DNA of 64,000 nt from Candidatus Saccharimonadia bacterium (GTDB lineage: Bacteria; Patescibacteriota; Saccharimonadia; UBA4664), in NCBI GenBank assembly GCA_036488585.1, contig DASXHH010000009.1, positions 366-64,365 on the forward strand, given 5' to 3'. Below, in pieces: positions 5,099-39,491 of this stretch. The stretch's first letter is position 1. Each line of letters starts with the position of its first letter. Under the pieces are notes generated by a model, which worked only from the letters and a program-made list of their open reading frames with translations, had not been told where the DNA came from and searched no databases. The translations under genes and the position numbers were made by a program.

Positions 5099-5184
5099 TG
5101 GTGCGCGAGAGAGGAGTCGAACCTCCACGTCCTTGCGGACACTAGTACCTGAAACTAGCGTGTCTACCATTCCACCACTCGCGC
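5099..5184 (-). tRNA. tRNA-Leu (anticodon CAG), class II with long variable arm, encoded CCA
   Basis: Reverse complement folds as a cloverleaf. Acceptor GCGCGAG/CTCGCGC; D-stem GTG/CAC; anticodon stem CTAGT/ACTAG with loop TTCAGGT (U33, CAG, G37); variable arm GTCC-gcaa-GGAC; T-loop TTCGACT; discriminator A plus CCA. Confidence 0.9.
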
Positions 5185-26773: not shown

Positions 26774-27601
26774 ATGGATACCCAGCTACTTACCCGTATA
26801 GAGCGCCCGCCCCGGCTGACCGTTGGCATACCAACGCGCAACGAGGAGAACACTATCGCGGTAGTGCTGAGCGACCTAGCTGCGGCGCTACGGAGAGAGC
26901 CGTCGCAGCTAATGGTGCTCGACGACAGCGACGACGACACGCCCGCTCAGGTACAAAGCGCTGTCTTCACAGAGCGAATCGGGGGACATCAGGTGGCGCT
27001 GCTGCACCGCGAGCGTGACGAGCGCAAAGGTGGACTCGCCTCCGAGGTACTACTCGGCCTCGAGATCGCCGGCCAGCAGGACGGTATGAAGTACTTCGCG
27101 CTCATGGACGGCGACGGCCAGCACGACCCGAAGGCCATTACCGACATGCTAGTTAAGATCGAGGAGACCGGCGCCGACATCGTGATCGCCAGCCGCTACA
27201 TCGAGGGTGGCCGGGCGACGGGCCTGAGTCCGGTCCGGGAGGTAGTGTCGCGAGCAGTAACACTACTCACTCGAGCCATTTTCCCGAAGCGGCTGGCCGG
27301 CGTGACTGACGTGGCCAGCGGCATGTTCATGGTGCGGCTGAAGTCGGTCGACACCAGGCCTGTATACGCCGATGGCTTTAAGATCCTGCTATCTCTGCTA
27401 GTCACGCACGACTGGTCCAAGGCCGAGGTAGCTTACGTATTCCGCGACCGGATCGCGGGCGAGAGTAAGGCCGGAGCCGCCGAGGGACTAAAGTTCCTGC
27501 GGCTGGTGGGCGCCCTGCGGCTGCGGTCGTGGCGCGAGCGCAGCCGGCAAGCGACAGAGAGGCTCTTCAAAGAGAGCATGAGCATCAAATCCCTCTTCTG
27601 A
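26774..27601 (+). CDS. GT2 polyprenol-phosphate sugar synthase (DPM1/GtrB/ArnC-like)
   Basis: [18 protein letters not shown] and MDGDGQHDP motifs typical of dolichol/undecaprenol-phosphate glycosyltransferases. GGAAGGAG Shine-Dalgarno. Confidence 0.8.
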
Positions 27602-27612
27602 CATCAGGAAGG

Positions 27613-29058
27613 ATGACAATGAAGAGTAAATGGTGGGTATCGCTACTGATACCGGCAGCGGCAGCGGTGCTAGTGACAAGTGCGCCGCCAGCCCAGGCCG
27701 GGATCGCCCAGCTCACTCGTTACCCCTACCTGACCGACGTGGTGCCGGCAGGTAGTACGGACAATGCAACGGTGAACTTCGCCACCGACCAAACAGTCAC
27801 TGCAGCCTACGCGACCATCGGACCGGTTGGCTCGTGCACAGGTACCAACCGCACGGGATCGAAGACCGCGATAGTCGTTAACGGCAAAGGTGAGTACCAG
27901 TGGAAGGTAAGGTTCACCGGACTAGCAGCCGCTTCAAATTACTGCTACCGGCTGCGGGCCGGAAGTCCAACGGCGCCCGGTCCTGATCTTCTGGGTACTG
28001 ACCCGTCACCGGTATTTATGGCTCCGGGCGGTAGCACCTCGTTCCAATTCGCCGTGATGGGCGACTGGGGCGATACAAACGCCGACGGATCCAACGCAGC
28101 TCAGGCCAGCCTGGACCAGCAGATCGCCTCTAGCGGCGCGCAATTTATGTTCGGCACCGGCGACACGGCCTACAACAGCGGCTCGCAATCGAACTACGGC
28201 GACCTGTTCCAGACCGGTTACCGGATTTCGGATGTGTTCCGGCAATCGTTCTTCGGGCAGGTTGGCGACCATATTCCGATATACAACGCGCTCGGCAACC
28301 ACGGAATGAGCTCCACCTTCCTGAATGTGTGGCCAGAGCCCTCGGCGCCATCGCTCTCTGGCGGGCGCTACCAGATGGACGCGTTCCCAAGTATCAACGG
28401 CTCGACAGCCGCGAGCTACCCGAGCGCATGGTACGCGTTCAGCGTGGGGTCAGCACGATTTTATGTACTGACAGCAGCCTGGGCCAACAGCAATGTTGGT
28501 ACAGGCAACATCTACAGCGACGACTACACGGCCCACTGGACCACCAACGCCGCTGAGTACCAGTGGCTAGCCGCAGATCTGGCAGCGCATCCTGGCGGAC
28601 TTAAGTTCGTATTCATGCACCTGCCGATGTACTCCGATTCCAGTACCGAGCACGCCGATACGTACTTGCACTCGGGCTCCACCGCCATGACGGACGCAAC
28701 GGGTGGCGTGGCCGCGCTGCTGTCCCAATACGGTGTGGATATCGTGTTCAACGGCCACGCTCATATATACGAGCGCAACTCCCGGTATCAGAGCGAGAGT
28801 TTCGTGTCGTACGTGACGGGCGGAGGTGGAAGCGTCCTCGAGCCGGTGGGAACCGGCGGGTGCGGCACCTACGATGCGTACGCCATCGGATGGTCGCCGA
28901 CTGCGCTCAAGGGCTACAAGTGCGGGGCAGCCATCGCGCCGAGTTCCGCCAGCCAGGTGTACCACTTCCTGCTCGTGAGCGTAAAAGGGCTAACCGTTTC
29001 GGTCACGCCGACGGCCTCTACGGGTCAGACCTTTGACGTCCAGACCTACTCCTTCTAG
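27613..29058 (+). CDS. secreted purple-acid-phosphatase-like metallophosphoesterase with N-terminal beta-sandwich domain
   Basis: Signal peptide, then the calcineurin-like motif series GDWGD, GDTAYN, GNHG and GHAHIYER. Confidence 0.75.
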   Translation: MTMKSKWWVSLLIPAAAAVLVTSAPPAQAGIAQLTRYPYLTDVVPAGSTDNATVNFATDQTVTAAYATIGPVGSCTGTNRTGSKTAIVVNGKGEYQWKVRFTGLAAASNYCYRLRAGSPTAPGPDLLGTDPSPVFMAPGGSTSFQFAVMGDWGDTNADGSNAAQASLDQQIASSGAQFMFGTGDTAYNSGSQSNYGDLFQTGYRISDVFRQSFFGQVGDHIPIYNALGNHGMSSTFLNVWPEPSAPSLSGGRYQMDAFPSINGSTAASYPSAWYAFSVGSARFYVLTAAWANSNVGTGNIYSDDYTAHWTTNAAEYQWLAADLAAHPGGLKFVFMHLPMYSDSSTEHADTYLHSGSTAMTDATGGVAALLSQYGVDIVFNGHAHIYERNSRYQSESFVSYVTGGGGSVLEPVGTGGCGTYDAYAIGWSPTALKGYKCGAAIAPSSASQVYHFLLVSVKGLTVSVTPTASTGQTFDVQTYSF

Positions 29059-29249
29059 GTGAAGGGGCAATGATTGGCGAAGCGGCGGCATAGAAACTGC
29101 CGCTTCGCCAACACTTTTTTGTAATTATTTCCAAATATACACCCCGCGGGCGTTGGTACGATGACGCCACCGTTTTCGGCAATAGCTCATTGAGAATATG
29201 GCAAAAAACAACCTTGGGACGATCGTCCCCACTTGCCCCCGGAGGCAAA

Positions 29250-30824
29250 ATGCTCAATGCATCGAACGCGGGCACAACGGTTGTCCCCGCACGCAGGCCG
29301 TTTGTAATGGTACTCACGGACCGCCGCCTACTCACAAGGGCTGCCTGGCTCATGGCTATCATGGGTGCGGGCGGCTTTTTGCGATTGTGGGACCTCGGCC
29401 GGATCGGCTTCAACAGCGACGAAGCCGTGTATACAGGCCAGGCCGCAGCACTAGCCGGCAATCCGCATCTACAGCCGCTATTCCCGGTGTTCCGGGCCCA
29501 TCCCCTGCTGTTTCAAGTGTTGCTGTCGCTGGTACTGCGTACCGGCACGAGCGACATCAAAGCGCGGATGGTAGCGGCGGCTTTTGGCATAGCAACCATC
29601 CTGGTGGTGTACCTGTTGGGCAAACTGCTCTATGGGGCGCCCGTGGGTATGGTGAGCGCAGCCATTATGGCTGTCACGCCTTACGGCGTGGTGGTAAGCA
29701 GGCAAGTACTGCTAGACGGACCGATGGCGTTCTTCGCTACCGTTACGCTCTACTGCCTGGCGCGATACTGCTTGGTGCGAGACCCGCGCTGGCTGTACGC
29801 GGCAGGCGCCATGATGGGCCTCACCATCCTAGCCAAAGAGACCGCCGCGCTGCTTCTCGTGGCCATCTTCGAATTCTTCGCTCTAGTTCGCACCCGGCGA
29901 CCCCGGTGGCGGGAATGGAGCGCGGCCCTGCTGATAATGATAGCGGTGGTGGCGGTATACGTGGCCGCCTTGGTGGTGGCACACCGAACGCACACAGGCG
30001 AGCAGTACTTTCTGTGGCAGAGCGCACGCCCGGCCAACCATTCCTACGGCTTCTACATCCGAGTGGTGCCGCCGGCCGTGGGCTGGGGCGTGATAGCCCT
30101 GGCCTTCGGCGGCGCGGCTTGGACTTGGCGGAGCAACGGGTGGCGGGAAGGGCTACTGTTGACATGGGTACTGGTGCCGGCCGCGGTGTTCTCACTGGTA
30201 GTAGCCATAAAAGGCTTCCAATACCTCGAGTTCATCGCTCCGGCCCTGAGCGTGCTGGCAGCCAGGACAGTCGTTTTGGCCCCGGTTCGGCATAAGCCCA
30301 GGCAGGCCCGGTTGGTGCAAATCGGCCGGGCGGCGGTGGGCGCATTGCTGCTCGTGAGCCTGGCGATCACCAGCTGGCAACAGCTCAACCCGGCGCCCAC
30401 CACCAGCTTCCTAGCGGGATCAGGTGGGCTGCCCGGCGGCCGGGAAACCGGCTACTGGGTAGACGGCCACGTGCCACAAGGTGGGCAACTACTGACGATC
30501 GGGCCATCAATGGCTAACGTGATTCAGTTTTATGGTCACCGGCGGACCTTGGCGCTATCAGTGAGCCCGAACCCGCTTGACCGCAACCCGTCCTACGAGC
30601 CAGTGGACAATCCGGACCAGCAACTCAGACAAGGAAACTTTCAGTACCTGGTATGGGACACCTTCAGTGCCCATCGCTCCCCCACTTTCTCATCCAAGCT
30701 ACTCAGTTACGTCAGCAAATACCATGGCGTAGCGGTGTACACACAGCTAATCCCGGTGAGACAGCGGGACGGACACACGTTCAAGACCCCGGTAATCGTG
30801 ATCTACGAGGTGATAAGCACGTGA
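29250..30824 (+). CDS. GT-C fold glycosyltransferase (PMT_2/ArnT/GT39-GT83-like), polytopic membrane
   Basis: FNSDEAVYTGQ (DE motif in the first loop), about 10 or more TMs, and a C-terminal soluble domain. GGAGG lies 5 nt before ATG 29250. Confidence 0.75.
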   Translation: MLNASNAGTTVVPARRPFVMVLTDRRLLTRAAWLMAIMGAGGFLRLWDLGRIGFNSDEAVYTGQAAALAGNPHLQPLFPVFRAHPLLFQVLLSLVLRTGTSDIKARMVAAAFGIATILVVYLLGKLLYGAPVGMVSAAIMAVTPYGVVVSRQVLLDGPMAFFATVTLYCLARYCLVRDPRWLYAAGAMMGLTILAKETAALLLVAIFEFFALVRTRRPRWREWSAALLIMIAVVAVYVAALVVAHRTHTGEQYFLWQSARPANHSYGFYIRVVPPAVGWGVIALAFGGAAWTWRSNGWREGLLLTWVLVPAAVFSLVVAIKGFQYLEFIAPALSVLAARTVVLAPVRHKPRQARLVQIGRAAVGALLLVSLAITSWQQLNPAPTTSFLAGSGGLPGGRETGYWVDGHVPQGGQLLTIGPSMANVIQFYGHRRTLALSVSPNPLDRNPSYEPVDNPDQQLRQGNFQYLVWDTFSAHRSPTFSSKLLSYVSKYHGVAVYTQLIPVRQRDGHTFKTPVIVIYEVIST

Positions 30825-32140
30825 AAGGTTACCGCATAATCGTGGACCTGGCACTAATGGCTGGGCTGGTAATATGGCCCCAAGCGGCTATAGCCAGCCC
30901 AGCTCCAGGGTCAGTCACACCCATCCAGCACCTCGTGGTGCTGATGCAATCCGGCCACTCCTTCGATAATTACTTCGGCACCTACCCAGGCGCCGATGGT
31001 ATCACTCAAGGAGTGTGCCTGCGCCCCGAGCTAAGCAAGACCAGCACTAACGGCTGCGTGCAGCCGTTCCATCTCGGCAATGAACCCGTTCAGGATCTCG
31101 AGCACAGCCTGAGCGTTTGGAGCCGCCAGTACGATAATGGCCTCATGGATGGTACAGTGGCGGCTTACCGGGCGCTGGGCCTGGGCACCAATACTCCCAT
31201 GGGCTATTACGACAGCCATGACCTGCCCTATTACTGGGGGGTGGCCCAGAACTATGTGCTATTCGACCACTTCTTTAGCTCGGCGCCCGTCGGGACCAGA
31301 CTCAACAGATTCTGGTGGGTTGCCGGGCGCTCCACTCCCGGCAACCTTGAGAGCCTCCCTAAAGGGGGCTACGGCAACATTCCAACCATCTTCGATCGGT
31401 TGGAGGCCGCCGGCGTGTCGTGGAAGTTCTACGTTCAGGGTTACCACCCGAATGTGACCTTCCGCTCCAACACCCGAGGCAAGAACTCCGAGCAGACGGC
31501 CTGGGTGCCACTGGTGGACTTTCCGCGGTTTGTAGATCAGCGAGAGCTGAATTCACACATTGTGGATATGAGCCAGTACTACACCGACCTCAACTCCGGC
31601 ACCCTGCCGGCGGTGGCGTTCATGACCTCGGCGCAGTCCAATGAGAGCCCGCCCGGTAACATCCAGGCGGGCCAACAGTTGGTGCGCCAGCTCACCACCA
31701 GCCTAGTCATGAGCCGCTATTGGCGTTCCAGCGCCTTTATGTGGACCTACGACGACTGGGGAGGCTGGTACGACCAAATGAAGCCGCCCCAGGGTTACGG
31801 TTTCCGGGTACCGGCGCTACTCATGAGCCCATACGCTAAAAAGGGCCAGGTTAACCACACAGTGCTTGATTACACGAGCATCCTGCGGTTTACCGAGTAC
31901 AACTGGCGGCTGGCACCACTGGCTAGTCGGGACTACCGGAGCAACAACCTGCTCAGTGCGTTCGACTTTACAGCTGGCCCACGCCCAGCCCAGCTGATCG
32001 GGCAAGCAGCCGTACTACCAGAAGCCAATGTCGCACCGGCTGTGTCAATTCTGTACCTACTCGCGATGGTGGTAGGGATTGCACTGGCACTGTGGGCATG
32101 GCTTACAACCCGATCGCCTGACGAGGTGATAAAAAAATGA
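30821..32140 (+). CDS. phosphoesterase-family protein (phospholipase C / AcpA acid phosphatase family), C-terminal TM anchor
   Basis: HLVVLMQSGHSFDNYFGTYPG matches the conserved ENRSFDHYFG region of PF04185. GTG start overlaps the upstream stop (GTGA). Confidence 0.7.
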   Translation: MKGYRIIVDLALMAGLVIWPQAAIASPAPGSVTPIQHLVVLMQSGHSFDNYFGTYPGADGITQGVCLRPELSKTSTNGCVQPFHLGNEPVQDLEHSLSVWSRQYDNGLMDGTVAAYRALGLGTNTPMGYYDSHDLPYYWGVAQNYVLFDHFFSSAPVGTRLNRFWWVAGRSTPGNLESLPKGGYGNIPTIFDRLEAAGVSWKFYVQGYHPNVTFRSNTRGKNSEQTAWVPLVDFPRFVDQRELNSHIVDMSQYYTDLNSGTLPAVAFMTSAQSNESPPGNIQAGQQLVRQLTTSLVMSRYWRSSAFMWTYDDWGGWYDQMKPPQGYGFRVPALLMSPYAKKGQVNHTVLDYTSILRFTEYNWRLAPLASRDYRSNNLLSAFDFTAGPRPAQLIGQAAVLPEANVAPAVSILYLLAMVVGIALALWAWLTTRSPDEVIKK

Positions 32141-33174
32141 AACTGCTAAGCCGCGGACTCGGCTTGGTGCTAGGACTGGTGCTCACGGGCGGTCTACTAA
32201 TAGTAGCCGCCCCACCAGCATTGGCCCAGCGCATAGTTACCCTCACCATAGTCACCGTACCGCACCTGCCCGCCGCCCGGTTCTCGTTTGACGGCCAGAG
32301 GGTGACCTCCGACAGCAAGGGAGTGGTGCGGCTATACGTACCGGCGAGCCGGAGCCCACATAAACTGCAATTGCTGACGCCTACGATAAGGAGTGGCGGG
32401 ACGCAAGCCCAGTTTGTGCGGTGGTGGGGGCAACCCAACCACGACCAAGATTACAAAACCAACCTTACAGGACTGTCGGTAGACCGTAGCGAACGACTAC
32501 AGGTAGCGTTCAGGGTAAGTTACCTGGTGAAATATCGCATGGTCAATCAAAACCATCAGCCCGTCGATTCCCGCCGCATCGAGCAGGTGGTGATCAAATC
32601 GGATACCGGTGAGCTCATTAATGTCCATGGAGGGCAAGCACGACTGACAGGCTACCGGCCGGCGCTCCAAAGCGGGACGATGGCCGAGAAGCAAGCGGTG
32701 TACTCGCTGTGGACGATCACCATTAACGGCTCGGATGCGATACACGCAGGCCAAATGCGATTCCTGCCCAGTCTGCCGCGCGATCAGAACCTGGAGTTTG
32801 TGATACCGCTCAAGAGTATCCAAATTACTGCCAGTGATCGGCTGCTCGGAAGGAGCGTGGGGAAGGCAGTGGTACTGACATTTCCAGACCACACATCAAC
32901 CACCATCCCGTTTGGCAGGAGCCACACGATAACGATCAATAACCTGGTACGAGGCAACTACCAAGTCCGACTGGTGGGCTCGAGTGGATTCGGTGGCAAC
33001 CGATCGCTCTCCCTGTCACGCAACCAGAATATAGTCCTTCGGGTCTGGAACTTCGAGGACTTCGCGCTGGTACTGCTAGTGCTGATTATTATCGTCACTA
33101 GCAGTCTGGTGGGTGGTCGGCTGGGACGACCCAGGCGCGCCCGACGCAAAAACGCTAAGGAGTCCGTGCCATGA
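32137..33174 (+). CDS. hypothetical secreted protein with C-terminal TM anchor (345 aa)
   Basis: Signal peptide, beta-rich body, and C-terminal LVLLVLIIIVTSSLVGG followed by a basic tail. Its ATG overlaps the upstream stop (ATGA). Confidence 0.6.
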   Translation: MKLLSRGLGLVLGLVLTGGLLIVAAPPALAQRIVTLTIVTVPHLPAARFSFDGQRVTSDSKGVVRLYVPASRSPHKLQLLTPTIRSGGTQAQFVRWWGQPNHDQDYKTNLTGLSVDRSERLQVAFRVSYLVKYRMVNQNHQPVDSRRIEQVVIKSDTGELINVHGGQARLTGYRPALQSGTMAEKQAVYSLWTITINGSDAIHAGQMRFLPSLPRDQNLEFVIPLKSIQITASDRLLGRSVGKAVVLTFPDHTSTTIPFGRSHTITINNLVRGNYQVRLVGSSGFGGNRSLSLSRNQNIVLRVWNFEDFALVLLVLIIIVTSSLVGGRLGRPRRARRKNAKESVP

Positions 33175-35339
33175 TGCGACTAATACGACGGCTGGGTCTG
33201 CTAACGGGCGCCATGATCGTGGCGCTATCTGTGACAGGCCTGGCGCCCGCCAGTGCCAGCTCTGGGCGACCCCCGGTGCTGGCCTACTACTACATCTGGT
33301 ATAACCAGGCGTCCTGGGGACATGGTAAGAGCGACTACCCGGCCCTAGGACGATATAATAGCGGCGACGCGAACATCATGCGCCAGCAGATCGAGCTGGC
33401 GAAGGGTGCGGGCATCGACGGCTTCATCGTGAGCTGGAAGGAGGCGCCCGACCTGGACGCGCGGCTGGCGACACTGGTGCAACTGGCACAGCAGGAGCAC
33501 TTTAAGCTGTCCGTCATCTACGAGGCACTGGATTACAACCGCCAGCCCCTGCCGGCGGCCAAGGTAGGCAGCGATCTGCAGTGGTTCGCAGCCCGCTACA
33601 GCAACAACCCAGTGTTTAACCTGTTCGGAAAGCCGCTGGTGATCTGGTCGGGAACGTGGATGTTCTCGCCCAGCGACATTCAAAAAGAAGTGGCGCCAGT
33701 GAGCAACCAGTTGCAGGTGCTGGCGTCGGAAAAAGACACTTCCGGATATCAACGACTGGCCGCGAGTGTCGCCGGTGACGCATACTACTGGTCGTCTGTG
33801 AACCCCTCCAGTAACCCCGGTTACGGCGTCAAACTGCACGACATGGCAAACATAGTTCACGCCGACCATGGGCTGTGGATTGCACCCTTTGCCCCTGGCT
33901 TCGATGCTCGGGACGTGGGCGGCCATGACGTGGTGTCGCGCAACGATGGCGACACACTAAGGACTGAGTACAGCACGGCGGTCACCTCCAGTCCTGATGC
34001 GCTGGGATTGATTAGCTGGAACGAGTACTCGGAGAATTCGGAGGTCGAACCCAGCCACAATACCGGCACGCTGTACCTGCGGGTACTACGCCAGCTCACT
34101 CACGGGCTCGGACCGAGCGCCGCTGAGCTGGGTATCGACTCCAGCGATTCCTCGGGCTCGGGCGGCGGCGGCCTGGCGCTACCCTTGCTAGGCCTGCTCG
34201 CGATACTGGTGCTCGTGACGATAGTGGGGATTCGCATGCGTGGCGGCCGCAACGACAACGACGAGGACGAGCCGCCTCCCCCACCACCGCGTCGCCGAGT
34301 TAGTTCAGGAAAGTTTCGAGCCGTAATGCGCCGCCGCGGGCTCGGACTCATCGTTGTGATGCTGGTGGCGCTGGTGCCGGCGGGAGCGACGGTGATTCCC
34401 AGCGACAAAGTCACTGAGACACCTCGTACAACGACGGCGGTGCCCGCGTCGGCGGTGGCTCATTACATGGGGCACATGCCGCCGGCCGGCAAAACCACAA
34501 TCACGATAGCCGCGGCCGGCGACATCGCCTGCACCGCGGGCGACCCGGATGCGGCTAACGCCCCGCTCTACAAAAACGATGTCTGCAAACAGCAGACCAC
34601 TGCCAACCTGATAACCAAGGTGATCCATCCGGATGCGGTGCTGCCGCTGGGCGACAACACCTATCCCAGCGGCAGCTTCAAAGGTTTCGAGCAGCTATAC
34701 GACCCGACATGGGGCAAGCTCAAGGCCATTACCTACCCAGTACCAGGTAACCATGAGTACGGCACGCCCGGAGCTAGCGGCTACTTCGCTTACTTCGGAA
34801 AGGCCGCCGGTATGCCAGGTCAGGGCTGGTACAGCTACAACATCGGCGACTGGCACATGGTGGCTCTCAACTCCGAGTGCGAGGATATTGGCGGCTGCGG
34901 CCGCGGGTCGCCCGAGGAGAGCTGGCTGCGGGCTGACCTGGCGGCCCATCCGGCGGCTTGCACGCTGGCCTACTGGCACAAGCCGCGTTGGAGCTCGGGC
35001 ACACACCACAGCAACGCCGCCTACAACGTCTTCTGGCAAGACTTGTACGCGGGCGGCGCTGACCTGGTGCTGGTCGGCCACGACCACGATTACGAGCGGT
35101 TCGCGCCGCTCGATCCCAGCGGAAAGGTGGATAACAACCGGGGAGTCCGGGAGATTGTAGCTGGCACCGGCGGCGACAGTCACTACCTCATACACACCCC
35201 GGTGAACGGTAGCCAGCGCCGCATCCAAGGAATATTTGGAGTGCTGGACCTAACGCTGCAACCACATGGTTACAGCTGGAAGTTTTTGGCGGAGCCAGGG
35301 GCGGGCGTGCTCGATTCTGGCTTGGCGGCCTGCCACTAA
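33171..35339 (+). CDS. fusion protein: N-terminal glycoside-hydrolase-like domain (GH99-like YYYxWY region) - TM - Pro/Arg-rich loop - TM - C-terminal calcineurin-like metallophosphoesterase
   Basis: PPVLAYYYIWYNQASW...GIDGFIVSW in the first domain. Two internal TMs (LALPLLGLLAILVLVTIVGI; LGLIVVMLVALVPAG). Second domain has GDIACT, GDNTY, GNHEYG and GHDHDYER. It is one uninterrupted ORF. Confidence 0.65.
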   Translation: MMRLIRRLGLLTGAMIVALSVTGLAPASASSGRPPVLAYYYIWYNQASWGHGKSDYPALGRYNSGDANIMRQQIELAKGAGIDGFIVSWKEAPDLDARLATLVQLAQQEHFKLSVIYEALDYNRQPLPAAKVGSDLQWFAARYSNNPVFNLFGKPLVIWSGTWMFSPSDIQKEVAPVSNQLQVLASEKDTSGYQRLAASVAGDAYYWSSVNPSSNPGYGVKLHDMANIVHADHGLWIAPFAPGFDARDVGGHDVVSRNDGDTLRTEYSTAVTSSPDALGLISWNEYSENSEVEPSHNTGTLYLRVLRQLTHGLGPSAAELGIDSSDSSGSGGGGLALPLLGLLAILVLVTIVGIRMRGGRNDNDEDEPPPPPPRRRVSSGKFRAVMRRRGLGLIVVMLVALVPAGATVIPSDKVTETPRTTTAVPASAVAHYMGHMPPAGKTTITIAAAGDIACTAGDPDAANAPLYKNDVCKQQTTANLITKVIHPDAVLPLGDNTYPSGSFKGFEQLYDPTWGKLKAITYPVPGNHEYGTPGASGYFAYFGKAAGMPGQGWYSYNIGDWHMVALNSECEDIGGCGRGSPEESWLRADLAAHPAACTLAYWHKPRWSSGTHHSNAAYNVFWQDLYAGGADLVLVGHDHDYERFAPLDPSGKVDNNRGVREIVAGTGGDSHYLIHTPVNGSQRRIQGIFGVLDLTLQPHGYSWKFLAEPGAGVLDSGLAACH

Positions 35340-35620
35340 CATGGCGAAACTGGGCCGGGGTGCAATTTTTGCCCCCGGCTCGGCCCCTCAGTCAATTGCT
35401 TGGGGGTATGAACGATTTTTGCGCAAAGGTGCGCTATTTTTTTAGGACTTATAGAGATGAGTGACAGTCGTGAGTGGTTTAGGTTTTACACAAGCCGTTT
35501 TTTTCAGAAAAAAGGGGCTGGGTTCGGGCACCTTTCGGGTGCAGGGGGATCTTTCACAACCAAGAGCACATGCTGCTCGTATCGAATCGTGCAAGTGAAG
35601 CAACGAGGAAGAGGCAGACC

Positions 35621-37510
35621 ATGTCTAATGCCATGCCACAAACACAGACCGCTACCGACACAGTGCCGGAGCCCCGGCTCTGGATTATGCGCCTCCTTAG
35701 TCACCGGTTTACGCGCGAGGCCATCAGCTGGGCTATCGTCGGACTCACCGGCGTAGCCGTAAACCAGCTCGCGCTCTGGGTGTTCGTGCAAATCGGCCTT
35801 GGACTGTGGCTAGCCAACATCCTGAACACGCCGGTCTCGACCACCTGGAATTTCTGGTGGATCGAGAAGCAGGTATACCACAGTAGCCGTCACCATCGAC
35901 TACGCCGGTTCGCCGGCGTGCTAGCAATCAACACATCGCTACTCCTGGTGCAGGGGCCGATGCTCATCTTTCTCATCGAGGTGCTACATAAGCACTATCT
36001 GACGGCCAACCTGCTCACACTCGCGCCGCTGTGGATCGTGCGCATGCTGTTGAGCCGGACGCTCTGGTTCAACACGTTCACGTCGGCGATGGCCGGCGCC
36101 GGCACCATTACCGACATCCCGGACACCATCGACCCAGACGAGCGCCGCGGTCCGGCGCGCCTAATCGAAGACGATGAAGTGCGGGGGTACCTCTACCGGA
36201 ACCATCTGCGCTGGAAGCCGCGCGGCCACCGGCGTAGGTTCTTCTACGACGTACATGGTTTGGTCCGGATCGTGAGCGATGTGCGCCTGCCAGAGCTGAC
36301 CGTATTCCAGATACAGCTGCACAACAAGAAGCGAATCGAGAGATTCGTGAAGCGCAGTCAGATTAAGATCGCGCGAGGGCGAGTCGGCAACACCACGCCG
36401 CGACGGCGGGTTGAGGCTTACCGAGTGAATGGTAAGCTGTTTAGCTACCTGGAACAATGTGGTAACCTCGGCGCCAACTTCCATGTTTCCCATAAGCACG
36501 GCGGGGAGCGCGTTCAGATTCGGGTGAGCCCACTGCTGGCTGGATCACCGCATGTGCTATACACCAACGTGGTGGAGGCCGTACTGCGCTTTATGTTGGC
36601 GCAGCGCGGGTACATGCTACTGCATTCGGCTACCATGGAGCTCGATGGGCGCGGAGTAATGCTGTCCGCCCGCACGGACACCGGCAAAACCGGCACAGTC
36701 CTGCGGATGCTAGCGGAACACGGGGACCGTATCCGGTTCCTATCCGACGACATGACCATCGTGAATGCCAAGGGTGAAGCCTGGTGTTACCCCAAGCCGC
36801 TAACTATTAGCTCGCACACACTGCGGGCCGTGAACCGCAAGGCGCTGAACCGATGGCAGCGAGTATTCCTGCCTGTCCAGAGCCGGATCCATTCCAAGAG
36901 CGGCCGAGGGTTCGCATTCCTGCTGGCCAAGCTCAACCTGCCGATTATGTCGATCAACTGCCTGACGCAGATGATCATCCCGCCACCCAAGTACTGGGTG
37001 GACGAACTGGTGCCGTGTCGAATCGCCAGACAGACCAAAGTGAAGCACTTGTTTATCATCGAGCGCGGCCACCAGATGAGCGAGCGCCCGATCGGGTGCT
37101 ACGAGGCTGTGGACGTCATGTTGGCTAACACCGAAGACGCCTACGGCTTCCCACCGTTCGCGATACTGGCGCCGGCCCTCACTCTCGGCGAGATCAACAA
37201 CCTAGTGCTGCGGACACGTGAGCGCGAGATCCTTAACGAGTTCCTGCGCTACATTCCTGTCACCAATCTGGTCGACCCCAACTTTGGTTGGGCCGATCGC
37301 ATTCCGGCGGCGCTGGCCAAGGGTGCACTGCCGAGTTTCCTCGTCCAGCACCAGATTGACAGCGAGCAGCTTCTGGCTCGCCAGGCGGTGCAGTCGGCGC
37401 CAGAGCTGCCGGCACTGGACGGGAGCCATGTGCCAGCCAACGGTACGGTCCTCAGGGGCGTGGTCGTGAAGATAATCAATGCCGAAAACGGTAACCAGGC
37501 GGAGGGGTAG
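35621..37510 (+). CDS. GtrA-like membrane domain fused to a large cytoplasmic domain with P-loop-like motif (AxxxxGKT; HprK/kinase-like?)
   Basis: N-terminal 4-TM GtrA-type region (AISWAIVGLTGVAVNQLALWVFV... WNFWW). C-terminal ~480 aa contains LSARTDTGKTGTVL and an RFLSDD segment. Confidence 0.6.
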   Translation: MSNAMPQTQTATDTVPEPRLWIMRLLSHRFTREAISWAIVGLTGVAVNQLALWVFVQIGLGLWLANILNTPVSTTWNFWWIEKQVYHSSRHHRLRRFAGVLAINTSLLLVQGPMLIFLIEVLHKHYLTANLLTLAPLWIVRMLLSRTLWFNTFTSAMAGAGTITDIPDTIDPDERRGPARLIEDDEVRGYLYRNHLRWKPRGHRRRFFYDVHGLVRIVSDVRLPELTVFQIQLHNKKRIERFVKRSQIKIARGRVGNTTPRRRVEAYRVNGKLFSYLEQCGNLGANFHVSHKHGGERVQIRVSPLLAGSPHVLYTNVVEAVLRFMLAQRGYMLLHSATMELDGRGVMLSARTDTGKTGTVLRMLAEHGDRIRFLSDDMTIVNAKGEAWCYPKPLTISSHTLRAVNRKALNRWQRVFLPVQSRIHSKSGRGFAFLLAKLNLPIMSINCLTQMIIPPPKYWVDELVPCRIARQTKVKHLFIIERGHQMSERPIGCYEAVDVMLANTEDAYGFPPFAILAPALTLGEINNLVLRTREREILNEFLRYIPVTNLVDPNFGWADRIPAALAKGALPSFLVQHQIDSEQLLARQAVQSAPELPALDGSHVPANGTVLRGVVVKIINAENGNQAEG

Positions 37511-37640
37511 ATGGCAAGACAAAGAGAAGAGCTCTAACCAACCAAAGCCACCCGGGTGCCTCGAGTGGCACCCATGCAGTTGCAAGAGAGCGGTCACGCT
37601 CTCTTGCAACTGCCAGTCAACTAGAACTTATTCATGAATA

Positions 37641-38309
37641 TTATTCCGTGGGCTCGGAAAGGCCTTGGCTGTGCAGAAACCGTTCGTGAATTTCGAGGGC
37701 CTCGTCGGCAATCTCCTGCGGATCGGAGGCGCCACGGAAGATAAACTTTTCTTCGGCGCCAGCCGATTCAATCTCCACATCGCCGTAATTGAAGATGGTT
37801 CGGGCAATGCCCTTGCGAGTGCCGGTGACGTCCTGAACACGCACGAAGGCTACCTGCGAAATCCGATGGCTAAACAGTCCGTATTGCTCGGCCACTAGCA
37901 GGTGAACGTTAGTAAAGATGAGCACATTGCGCTGATATACGAACAGTCCGATTAGAAAAATAAGGGCCGCCAGCACCAGCAAGATCACCACGAGTGCGAA
38001 AACCATGAGACGCGGGAACGGGATGGTATCCGGGTAGCGTCCCTCGCCAAACGCGAACGCGAGGGCTACCAGTATAAGCAGAACCGATGTGAACAACGTG
38101 GGCAATAGAGTGAGCGGATGACGGTGAATAATTCGGGTGATTTGCTCACCGGGATCTAGATCGAAGCCATAGGGCGTGGGAGTCTCGCCGGGCTCGGGCA
38201 ATTCGCCCGTTTCGGCCGAGTGCCCGACGGTTGGACCCGGCTGCTCGGGGGCCGGTGGCTGGGCTTGAGCCGGCGATTGGTTGGGCGTTGGAATGGGAGT
38301 TTGGTCCAT
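37641..38309 (-). CDS. bacterial PH-domain (bPH_2/YdbT-like) membrane protein
   Basis: Two TMs followed by a PH-like region (VLIFTNVHLLVAEQYGLFSHRISQVAFVRVQDV...IFNYGDVEIES). Confidence 0.6.
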   Translation of the reverse strand: MDQTPIPTPNQSPAQAQPPAPEQPGPTVGHSAETGELPEPGETPTPYGFDLDPGEQITRIIHRHPLTLLPTLFTSVLLILVALAFAFGEGRYPDTIPFPRLMVFALVVILLVLAALIFLIGLFVYQRNVLIFTNVHLLVAEQYGLFSHRISQVAFVRVQDVTGTRKGIARTIFNYGDVEIESAGAEEKFIFRGASDPQEIADEALEIHERFLHSQGLSEPTE

Positions 38310-38324
38310 GGTAAAGCTATTATA

Positions 38325-39491
38325 CTACCCGACTTTGCCGAAGCCAGATGCCATTAAATTGAGTATCACCAGGGTGAGGCCGGAGAGCTGAGCGGCGGCG
38401 AACAGGCGGTAACGGGGGCTACGCCAGCGCGACAGACCCTTGCGCCATACCACCATGTGTGTGGCCGCGTACACGACGAGCAGCAGCAATAGCAGCATGA
38501 GCGTGGCCTGGGTATTCCAGCTGAGGGTGGCCACAACGGATAGTGGACGGAACAGACTATAGGCCTGAGGCTTGGGAGCCAAGGTGCCCGCTGGCGCCGG
38601 CGAGATTTCGCCGCTCACGACCGGCGGCGTGCCGATAGGCGTGGGCACTGGAGTGGGCGTAGGAACCGGGGTCGACACTGGAGTGGAGGCGGGGGTGGAG
38701 GCGGCGGCCACAGTGGGTCGTGGGGTGGTGGCCGGTGCTGGTGCTGCGGCCACCGGCTGGGCGGCTGTGGCGCCATAATGCGCCACCACCAACGTGGTCG
38801 GCTCGTTGGCCTGGGCTACTGGTGCGGTGCAGGTGGGCGTGGTGTAAGCCGAGCTGCCGCTCGAGGGAATGCTGTCGTAGGGCGACTGGCCGTTTTCCAC
38901 CGCGAAGCCGACGTCGGTATAGTGAGGATTGAGGATGTTGGCGCGGTGGCCGGGCGAATTCATCCAGCCATCCATCACGCCCTGGGCGGTGTCGAAGTCT
39001 TTAGCCAGGTTTTCGCCAGCGTAGGTGTAGTTGTAGCCAGCCAGCGTAAACCAGTGCCAGGGTTGGACGCAGGCCGGGCTGACATGGTTCCAGTAGTCGT
39101 TTGCGAACATGTCTTGGGCCTTCATGGAGGCGGAATTGTTAAGTCGCGCGTCCATGCGCAGAGCGGGCAAGCCACCTGCGGCGCGCTGTTGGTTGGTGAG
39201 ATCGAGCAGCTGGGTGGGCGTGATGCTGCCGGTGGCGTAGGACAGCACGTTACCGCCATTGGTGCTGCCGGCACCTTTCACTATAGGGGTCGGGGCGGAA
39301 TGGTGGATGGCCGTCGCCAGCGCGGAGGCTTGCAACCCGACGATTAGCACGGCCATCAGGGCCAGGCCGGGCAGACGGATCAAGTGGGGGCGATGGTCGT
39401 TGTGGGTATGCGGTACCAACCAGCGCTTGGCGTGACGCGCGAGGTGGTGATGCAACCGAACGGGTTGAGTTTTGCGCTTAGGTGTTCGCAT
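38325..39491 (-). CDS. secreted CAP/SCP/PR-1 domain protein with PT-rich linker and C-terminal TM segments
   Basis: CAP motifs (LLDLTNQQRAAGGLPAL; GENLA; GHRANILNPHYTDVGFAV). Low-complexity PVPTPTPVPTP linker. Confidence 0.7.
   Translation of the reverse strand: MRTPKRKTQPVRLHHHLARHAKRWLVPHTHNDHRPHLIRLPGLALMAVLIVGLQASALATAIHHSAPTPIVKGAGSTNGGNVLSYATGSITPTQLLDLTNQQRAAGGLPALRMDARLNNSASMKAQDMFANDYWNHVSPACVQPWHWFTLAGYNYTYAGENLAKDFDTAQGVMDGWMNSPGHRANILNPHYTDVGFAVENGQSPYDSIPSSGSSAYTTPTCTAPVAQANEPTTLVVAHYGATAAQPVAAAPAPATTPRPTVAAASTPASTPVSTPVPTPTPVPTPIGTPPVVSGEISPAPAGTLAPKPQAYSLFRPLSVVATLSWNTQATLMLLLLLLVVYAATHMVVWRKGLSRWRSPRYRLFAAAQLSGLTLVILNLMASGFGKVG

Follow-up and report, generated by a model that had tools for sequence, protein, structure and literature searches.

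A GtrA/DPMS-type membrane domain joined to a PEPCK/HprK-like P-loop domain in a conserved glycosylation gene cluster of a Candidatus Saccharimonadia bacterium

The window analyzed here is a stretch of 64,000 nucleotides from contig DASXHH010000009.1 of a Candidatus Saccharimonadia bacterium. The gene under study occupies positions 35621-37510 of its plus strand and is the last of a same-strand cluster spanning 26774-37510. It encodes a protein of 629 amino acids in which a GtrA-type four-helix transmembrane (TM) domain, of the kind found in dolichyl-phosphate mannose synthase (DPMS), is fused to a kinase-like domain resembling phosphoenolpyruvate carboxykinase (PEPCK) and HprK. In the list of open reading frames of the window it lies in a single unbroken frame (35570-37510, plus strand), and GGAAGAGG, which resembles a ribosome-binding site, precedes the ATG at 35621, from which the residues of the protein are numbered here. 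The NCBI model of the identical protein, P0001, starts four codons further downstream and has 625 residues; it is labeled 'GtrA family protein [Candidatus Saccharimonadia bacterium]' in the database and is carried on a 157.6-kb contig.

The membrane module (residues 38-150, positions 35732-36070) scored 48.1 bits against the Pfam profile GtrA_DPMS_TM (PF04138; cut-off 26.1, E=1.6e-12), with profile positions 3-117 of 117 covered, and is a true member of this family, as a preliminary description of the locus had recognized. The full-length AlphaFold2 model, based on 48 aligned relatives and with a predicted local distance difference test score (pLDDT) of 79.7, showed four long helices at residues 18-57, 61-86, 93-120 and 126-158, with block-mean pLDDT mostly 77-97 over residues 31-140. 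A full-length phmmer search of the PDB returned a sole match, the membrane domain of Pyrococcus furiosus DPMS (5mlz, residues 255-370, E=9e-6), which aligned with the GtrA module. This module is followed by a disordered linker (residues 154-201, positions 36080-36223), reflected by block-mean pLDDT values of about 36-56 across residues 151-200 and by values below 50 in segments 154-177, 194-197 and 199-201. The C-terminal tail (residues 591-629) was disordered in the model as well. A Pfam scan found no glycosyltransferase family 2 (GT2) domain in this reading frame; the GT2 is a separate gene at 26774-27601. The preliminary description had regarded GtrA proteins as normally stand-alone; the GtrA identity holds, but modules of the DPMS type ordinarily occur fused with other domains.

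The soluble part, first taken to be a domain of ~480 residues, consists of a folded domain of about 360 residues (205-567, positions 36233-37321, pLDDT mostly above 85) with the disordered linker and tail around it. Modeled in isolation, it reached a pLDDT of 85.9 and a predicted TM-score of 0.86. Its Walker A P-loop ARTDTGKTG (residues 350-358, including K356 and T357; positions 36668-36694) satisfies the [AG]xxxxGK[ST] criterion of Walker-A P-loop proteins at A350-T357 and forms a canonical strand (344-350), loop and helix (356-367) with pLDDT of at least 90, and not a buried, non-loop element. The next strand after the P-loop helix (371-375) is closed by the aspartate pair of the RFLSDD motif (residues 372-377, with D376 and D377; positions 36734-36751). 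Two further motifs are LLHSAT with H335 (36617-36634), conserved in both family alignments, and YPKPLTIS with K392 (36788-36811). The Walker A and RFLSDD segments, which had been pointed out from the letters alone, are kept in about 98-99% of 446 near-full kinase domains among the relatives fetched, on which all motif counts were taken: Walker A in 440, DTGK[ST] in 439 and xDD in 438. [FY]PK was found in 434 of the 446, and a strict H[SGC]A pattern in 353, the histidine itself being nearly invariant in the family alignments. A family-specific insert (residues 405-452, positions 36833-36976) comprises two cationic amphipathic helices (hydrophobic moments 0.60 and 0.45, charge +3 each) and one hydrophobic helix, and carries a conserved QSRxHSKxGR; judged by this composition it is a possible membrane- or phosphate-binding element.

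Comparison of folds placed the domain among the P-loop kinases. The top 50 PDB matches of the isolated domain in Foldseek were exclusively ATP- or GTP-dependent PEP carboxykinases and HPr kinase/phosphorylases (HprK/P), with E-values from 1.4e-5 to weaker, TM-scores mostly of 0.35-0.45 and most alignments extending over 400-530 columns. The full-length model retrieved PEPCK and HprK/P again, plus DPMS for the membrane part. The HprK- or kinase-like nucleotide-binding fold anticipated in the preliminary description, for which a structure prediction followed by a Foldseek search had been proposed as a check, was thus borne out. The best structural match was Escherichia coli PckA (1aq2, 1k3c, 1yvy), aligned over both lobes and about 400-440 columns, and hhalign of a profile of 20 relatives to PckA (E=1.6e-4, probability 51%) brought the catalytic residues into register: LLH(335)S with MH(232)CS, TDTGK(356)T(357) with SGTGK(254)T(255) of the PckA P-loop GLSGTGKT, LSD(376)D(377) with IGD(268)D(269) and CYPK(392) with CYAK(288). 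Identity to PckA is only 8-10%, however, the domain has about 360 residues compared to 540 and no metabolic context fitting a PEPCK was found. Ungapped extension of the hhalign register places T315 and N316 at the PckA substrate/Mn2+ lysines K212 and K213, and as these lysines are not conserved, PEPCK activity was rejected.

At the sequence level, the HprK group of models gave scores far below the family cut-offs on all these proteins. The target protein scored 25.5 bits against TIGR04352, HprK-related kinase A (cut-off 200, E=6.3e-6, only profile positions 84-167), 18.1 bits against TIGR04249, ScmC (cut-off 125, E=1e-3), 16.3 bits against TIGR00679, HPr(Ser) kinase (cut-off 240, E=4e-3), and 12.1 bits against Pfam Hpr_kinase_C, PF07475 (cut-off 33.3, E=0.14); the NCBIfam model of HprK-related kinase B gave E=0.03, far below its cut-off. 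Among 20 diverse relatives, the HprK-related A model matched 16, ScmC 15, HPr(Ser) kinase 5 and HprK-related B 12, the best E-value being 1e-8. Pfam detected no HprK N-terminal domain in the target protein. A profile of the C-terminal domain had no match among PDB sequences even at E up to 10, and only the fold comparison and hhalign reached PEPCK and HprK. PF27840, a newer Pfam family labeled ScmC, appears as a precomputed match on the P0001 entry and is flagged 'weak' on actinobacterial relatives.

The domain shares with HprK/P (PF07475, TIGR00679; 1kkl, 1knx, 1ko7) the P-loop kinase core of the PEP-carboxykinase-like fold and the order His...G-K-[ST]...D-D. It differs by an additional N-terminal beta lobe and the roughly 50-residue cationic/hydrophobic insert, and it is membrane-tethered and encoded in a glycan operon, whereas HprK/P is found with genes of the phosphotransferase system. 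The nearest sequence models are those of ScmC and the HprK-related kinases A and B (TIGR04249, TIGR04352, TIGR04355; PF27840). These reach E-values down to 1e-8 among the relatives, but with scores of 18-26 bits against cut-offs of 125-200; the families are defined by peptide-maturation or GAK cassettes, whereas the present family is defined by GT2, GtrA and GT-C neighbors. As far as sequence allows this to be judged, the criteria that define HprK/P, ScmC, HprK-related A/B and PEPCK exclude the soluble domain from each of these families, although it has the catalytic core in common with them. We conclude that it forms a family of its own in the PEP-carboxykinase-like/HprK superfamily of P-loop kinases. 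H335, K356/T357, D376/D377 and K392 would constitute a complete phosphoryl-transfer set, and their conservation indicates that the kinase domain is most probably catalytically active.

The fusion recurs widely, as a database search for the same architecture revealed. The full-length query retrieved 2495 proteins; all 119 others among the matches listed were 42-53% identical, all but one of them covering 84-95% of the query, and some bear an extra N-terminal GT2 domain. Recurrence of the architecture at this level of identity, together with the Walker A retained in 440 of 446 domains, puts the observation in the window beyond chance. A search with the C-terminal domain against 1.84 billion cluster representatives yielded 838 matches at E <=1e-3 and 156 at E <=1e-30. 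When a single genome was scanned for each species, loci with the kinase domain numbered at least 574, the fusion being recurrent and not unique to this genome. The best 80 of these loci were nearly all from Actinomycetota (Streptomyces, Micromonospora, Dactylosporangium, Actinoplanes, Agromyces, Blastococcus, Jatrophihabitans and Propionibacteriaceae); one of the 80 was a non-actinomycete, the metagenome-assembled genome (MAG) of a member of the Saccharimonadales, which held the closest relative, at 54%. Kinase proteins standing alone (P0334 of Nitrososphaeraceae, for example) form large clades in Nitrososphaeraceae/Nitrosopumilus archaea and another clade whose named members are Anaerolineales. 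Many of these proteins without a glycosyltransferase domain (P0224, P0301, P0160 and others) are labeled 'dolichol-phosphate mannosyltransferase' by JGI, which looks like a mis-annotation propagated from the fused forms.

The 505 proteins fetched could be sorted into several architectures: kinase alone (295, some of which are fragments), GtrA-kinase (155), GT2-GtrA-kinase (35), GT2-kinase (13), GtrA-kinase-GT-C (3) and one each of GT2-GtrA-kinase-GT-C (P0122, 1310 residues), kinase-GtrA, GT2-kinase-GtrA and kinase-GT-C. Fusion of the kinase to GT-C was seen in P0122, P0142, P0147 and P0203. That fusions arose with more than one order of domains suggests that physical proximity has been selected for, in preference to a single accident. 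An artefact of fusion or assembly was rejected, the reading frame being continuous and the same architecture being present in complete genomes of cultured strains.

The closest relative, P0002, lies on a Saccharimonadales MAG contig (CAZGZY010000031.1, locus L004) and is 47% identical over the full length and 54% in the kinase domain. This locus shares the downstream bPH_2 and CAP-domain genes with window positions 35621-39491 and has two tandem GtrA modules ahead of its kinase. Since most other carriers of the operon are actinobacterial and Saccharibacteria are known to have Actinomycetota as hosts, an old horizontal transfer or a mis-binning of the operon in Saccharimonadia-type MAGs is possible.

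The cluster upstream of the target gene, all on the plus strand, begins with the GT2 gene (26774-27601), a catalytic subunit of a polyprenyl-phosphate-sugar synthase according to its Pfam GT2 and NCBIfam matches, of which the best, well below the cut-off, was to the polyprenyl-P-GalNAc synthase PpgS. Its product aligns at 36% identity with P0019, a triple fusion, over residues 39-268 of the latter (E=7e-36), and it ends where the GtrA part of P0019 starts, so that the GT2-GtrA-kinase protein is present as two genes in this genome. Since in most relatives the target protein corresponds to the C-terminal part of a GT2-GtrA-kinase polypeptide, from which the GT2 of the window has been split off, its GtrA module is better understood, on comparative grounds, as belonging to a polyprenyl-P-sugar synthase, of which it would be the membrane domain, than as a flippase working by itself. 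Next come a secreted purple-acid-phosphatase-like metallophosphoesterase (27529-29058; Pfam Metallophos and Pur_ac_phosph_N, signal peptide) and a polytopic PMT_2/ArnT-like GT-C glycosyltransferase (29190-30824; Pfam PMT_2, E=1.2e-21).

The following gene (30821-32140) encodes a phosphoesterase of the PLC/AcpA type (PF04185, E=1.2e-63; TIGR03396, TIGR03397) with a signal/anchor segment and a C-terminal TM anchor. As called mechanically, its reading frame overlaps GT-C by 172 nucleotides (30653-30824). The GTG at 30821 overlaps the GT-C stop codon (GTGA) and precedes the signal/anchor, and it is probably the real start because it matches the 4-nucleotide overlaps between the downstream genes. 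A conserved ecto-protein of 345 residues with a signal peptide and a predicted C-terminal TM anchor (32137-33174) had no Pfam or NCBIfam match; its counterparts elsewhere have 454-464 residues, with faint Big- or CarboxypepD_reg-like matches. The last gene of this series (33171-35339) joins a glycoside hydrolase (GH) domain, GH71/GH99-like, via two TM segments to a metallophosphoesterase domain, a fusion that implies one common substrate, perhaps a phosphoglycan. This protein has a signal peptide and a Pro/Arg-rich loop between its TM segments, and its parts are separate genes in other genomes.

A consensus scan revealed a terminator-like hairpin with a T-run at 35421-35434 (plus strand), between this upstream operon and the target gene. 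A scan for sigma-70-like promoters upstream of the target gene found no site, a result that is uninformative for this lineage. Two genes on the minus strand (37641-39491) converge on the target gene, one for a YdbT-like bPH_2 membrane protein and one for a protein that has a CAP/SCP domain and a linker rich in Pro and Thr; the minus strand also has a second terminator-like hairpin, at 37547-37569. Scans for Rfam families and tRNAs gave no match in the vicinity of the target gene; in the whole window the sole tRNA found was Leu-CAG (5099-5184), with no other Rfam family. GC skew was positive in almost every 2-kb bin of the window, and the steadily climbing cumulative skew indicates that it probably lies entirely on one replichore.

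The cluster is conserved in other genomes. Searching 83 related loci with the proteins of the window by tblastn revealed GT2 near the kinase in 79, GT-C in 67, PF04185 in 60, a GH99-like protein in 55, a metallophosphoesterase in 51 and the conserved ecto-protein in 45. Among the 61 loci whose flanks reach 8 kb or more on both sides of the kinase, the numbers were 60 for GT2, 57 for GT-C, 59 for PF04185 or a metallophosphoesterase, 51 for a metallophosphoesterase relative and 54 for a GH. The usual gene order is GT2-GtrA-kinase, GT-C, PF04185, the conserved ecto-protein, GH99-like and metallophosphoesterase, and independent gene calls on an actinobacterial-type contig showed the same operon, with 4-nucleotide gene overlaps. 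Strains that carry the operon include Streptomyces griseosporeus JCM 4766 (L016) and Micromonospora sp. NBC_00898 (L053). In L088 and L090, where the kinase has a gene to itself, this gene abuts the GT2-GtrA end or overlaps it, and the clade with Anaerolineales members has the same operon neighbors. In Nitrososphaeraceae, the kinase adjoins GT2-GtrA and a metallophosphoesterase (L085/L086) or GT-C and GT2 (L087). In the window and three other loci compared, the PF04185, conserved ecto- and GH99-like proteins carry a signal peptide and a C-terminal membrane anchor, and no TM segment was predicted in the kinase. We are highly confident that the PEPCK/HprK-superfamily domain is integral to this operon.

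Some loci depart from this arrangement. A variant cluster in Dactylosporangium has GH5 instead of GH99 plus a CBM96-metallophosphoesterase, a fusion recorded for L022. CBM96 modules recur beside the operon (L022 16030-18822; L001 18489 onward; L089 10235-15968), where they form part of a metallophosphoesterase, a NosD-like beta-helix protein and a protein resembling glyoxal oxidase, which hints at a specific, possibly anionic, polymer. The operon of L090 includes a ManC-like nucleotidyltransferase gene. About 4 kb upstream of that operon (L090 1755-5136) lie a PEP synthase/PPDK-type gene (PPDK_N, PEP-utilizers) and a DUF299 kinase/pyrophosphorylase regulator (PF03618); DUF299 enzymes are mechanistically HprK-like, and the proximity is probably coincidental.

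These observations are best explained if the protein unites two functions, those of a membrane subunit of a polyprenyl-phosphate-sugar synthase and of a P-loop phosphotransferase on the cytoplasmic side, and if the kinase is a dedicated fourth component of a GT2/GtrA/GT-C operon for extracytoplasmic glycosylation. The domain identities, the fold family, the conserved motifs, the fusions, the operon and the ecto-phosphoesterases that accompany the kinase almost without exception are established by the analysis; the topology, the catalytic activity, the substrate and all later steps are inferred as follows. The GtrA/DPMS-type domain would dock the separate GT2 subunit (26774-27601) and hold the lipid carrier. 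The soluble domain would lie in the cytoplasm, because four helices following a cytoplasmic GT2 return the chain to that side, and the GT2-kinase-GtrA order needs the same placement. At the cytoplasmic face, the kinase would use ATP to phosphorylate the lipid-linked intermediate, the likeliest target being a hydroxyl of the sugar on a polyprenyl-P-hexose, probably mannose, newly made by GT2. The phosphorylated lipid-sugar would then be flipped, GT-C would move the phosphorylated sugar to a membrane-proximal acceptor, and the anchored PF04185 phosphoesterase, the metallophosphoesterases and the GH99/71-like hydrolase would process the resulting phosphoglycan outside.

That the kinase acts on a lipid-linked species, either sugar or carrier, stands at roughly even chances in our estimate. 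The preliminary description had offered such a kinase as one of its alternatives, and it is the reading that we tentatively prefer. The lipid-linked sugar is favored since the tightest coupling of the kinase is to the synthase. The variant in which the sugar itself is phosphorylated is more tentative, and we place it, within a narrow range, clearly below even. It is favored because a protruding phospho-sugar head group is more accessible to a soluble, flexibly tethered domain of the cleft type than the hydroxyl of a bare polyprenol would be, and the modeled two-lobed domain on its ~50-residue tether, with the cationic amphipathic insert, would suit such a head group. The GH-metallophosphoesterase and CBM96-metallophosphoesterase fusions suggest that the glycan outside carries phosphate, as do the C-terminal membrane anchors on the PF04185, conserved ecto- and GH99 proteins. 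The ManC-like gene in the L090 operon and the GH99/GH71 and PMT similarities suggest mannose as the sugar. Lipid A, where the kinase LpxK acts inside and the phosphatases LpxE and LpxF act outside, provides a precedent for inside-kinase, outside-phosphatase logic. The proposed pairing of kinase and phosphoesterases may be likened to it and to DgkA and Sec59, with phosphorylation of a lipid-linked sugar or carrier lipid inside and phosphatases outside; the analogy is functional only, and no relationship in sequence or fold is expected.

Several points weigh against this assignment. The substrate proposed is conjectural, and the nearest named families (HprK/P, ScmC, HprK-related A/B) have proteins as substrates or are encoded next to peptide-maturation genes and are not associated with lipids. 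We know of no precedent for polyprenyl-P-hexoses phosphorylated by a kinase, and the known phospho-lipid-sugar, decaprenyl-P-ribose-5-P, gets its phosphate from phosphoribosyl pyrophosphate. There is no evident reason why one operon should both add and remove the same phosphate. The homology is remote at the fold level (TM-scores of 0.35-0.45 to PEPCK, hhalign probability 51%). Two of the 20 aligned relatives, P0200 and P0227, have degenerate P-loops, and two full-flank loci, L024 and L087, have no phosphoesterase near the kinase. In the window, finally, 280 bp and the terminator-like hairpin part the target gene from the rest of the cluster.

A different lipid substrate would be the carrier itself. 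Polyprenol freed outside would flip back unaided and be re-phosphorylated by the kinase beside the GT2 that consumes polyprenyl-P, which makes an ATP-driven carrier cycle. The polyprenol would originate from dephosphorylation of polyprenyl-P by the anchored PF04185 enzyme after transfer by GT-C, or from a PLC-type cleavage using polyprenyl-P-sugar as a sugar-1-phosphate donor. We regard this as unlikely. The gene arrangement speaks for it: the kinase is always fused to or beside a polyprenyl-P-consuming enzyme, the anchored PLC/AcpA-type phosphoesterase directly follows GT-C with overlapping stop and start codons, and an ecto-phosphoesterase co-occurs with the kinase in 59 of 61 loci. DgkA-type undecaprenol kinase and the dolichol kinase Sec59, paired with phosphatases at the outer face, are precedents. 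The polyprenol and dolichol kinases known so far are, however, embedded in the membrane as integral enzymes, and a tethered soluble domain of the cleft type is ill-suited to a bare polyprenol hydroxyl. Moreover, GT-C enzymes release polyprenyl-P, which is normally reused without dephosphorylation, and the metallophosphoesterases directed at glycans, as indicated by the CBM96 and GH99 fusions, would be left unaccounted for. In a related proposal, to which we assign a similarly low probability, the domain would be the first lipid kinase of the PEPCK fold, acting on polyprenol or dolichol or on polyprenyl-P-hexose in an ATP-driven 'phosphate in, phosphate out' cycle with the anchored PLC/AcpA-like ecto-enzyme. 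In its boldest form, the ecto-enzyme would take polyprenyl-P-mannose as a mannose-1-phosphate donor and build a phosphomannan-like surface polymer, and the freed polyprenol would be recycled by the kinase.

The domain could also be a Ser/Thr kinase for proteins or peptides that regulates the pathway, as HprK/P or the capsule BY-kinases do, by phosphorylating the synthase, GT-C, another protein or itself, with the ecto-phosphoesterases unrelated to it. The sole family matches at the sequence level (HprK/P, HprK-related kinases A and B, ScmC) are protein or peptide kinases or linked to peptide maturation, and the catalytic His/GK[ST]/DD set is common to HprK/P, the alignment at residue level having been made to PckA. 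The arrangement with a membrane partner, fused or separate, resembles Wzc and CapA/CapB. Against this, no HprK N-terminal domain was detected, the scores remain far below every family cut-off, and the two-lobed domain fits PEPCK better than HprK, most matches extending across some 400 columns or more. Such a kinase would also lack a conserved cytoplasmic phosphatase partner and would leave the ecto-phosphoesterases in 59 of 61 loci unexplained. We consider it improbable, to the same degree as carrier regeneration.

Less probable still is a soluble kinase of a small molecule, such as a free sugar or metabolite yielding, for example, a sugar phosphate for the synthesis of nucleotide-diphosphate sugars, or a nucleotide-binding energy sensor. 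The best structural match, PEPCK, acts on a small metabolite, one operon contains a ManC-like nucleotidyltransferase, and the degenerate P-loops of a few members could be accommodated. Such an enzyme would, however, need neither a membrane tether nor fusion to GT2, GtrA or GT-C in at least five architectures, and the PEPCK substrate and Mn lysines K212/K213 are replaced by T315/N316. Least likely, and very improbable, is an ATP-driven or ATP-gated flipping of the lipid-linked sugar through GtrA by the P-loop domain, the energized translocation raised in the preliminary description: the direct fusion to GtrA, the conserved Walker A and the absence of a known energy source for GtrA proteins speak for it, but all solved structures matched in this fold are phosphotransferases (kinases or carboxykinases) and not mechano-ATPases, a ~50-residue disordered linker separates the domains, their order is interchangeable (kinase-GtrA, GT2-kinase-GtrA), many of the kinases (295 of 505 proteins fetched) are soluble proteins of their own and the GtrA module here is of the DPMS membrane type.

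The systems most similar to this cluster are the three-component systems GtrB-GtrA-GtrV, CsbB-GtcA-YfhO and PpgS-Rv3789-Rv3779, which likewise combine a GT2 synthase, a GtrA four-helix module and a GT-C in one cluster. The present cluster adds the PEPCK/HprK-like kinase, the ecto-phosphoesterases, a GH and the conserved anchored protein, none of which the accounts of the prototype consulted mention. A definition by three components only does not fit, since all loci examined have the kinase domain either as part of a fusion or next door. The 'GtrA-dependent' gsf cluster of Actinoplanes was rejected as a match, having a stand-alone GtrA of 121 residues and neither kinase nor GT-C (PMC13390465). 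No published description of this kinase family or operon was found in the literature searched, which excluded most subscription journals, and 'ScmC' occurred there only as unrelated acronyms. The claim that no such family had been described thus holds for papers, but the proteins are abundant in databases and PF27840 already touches the domain.

The three-component GT2/GtrA/GT-C arrangement is the standard model for decorating surface polymers outside the membrane and is thought to work without an ATP-using enzyme beyond sugar activation. In the present systems, which span Streptomyces, Micromonospora, Anaerolineales, Saccharimonadia and ammonia-oxidizing archaea, a kinase of the PEPCK/HprK superfamily is conserved as a fourth component; it is often fused covalently and has ecto-phosphoesterases beside it in nearly all cases. 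If the lipid-kinase cycle were true, the Nitrososphaeraceae module would be a previously unidentified archaeal lipid-carrier kinase. If the kinase does act on a lipid-linked sugar or carrier, this would add a new lipid-carrier step, with a lipid or lipid-sugar kinase that represents a class of its own, and it would point to an uncharacterized, probably phosphate-bearing surface glycan in well-studied antibiotic producers.

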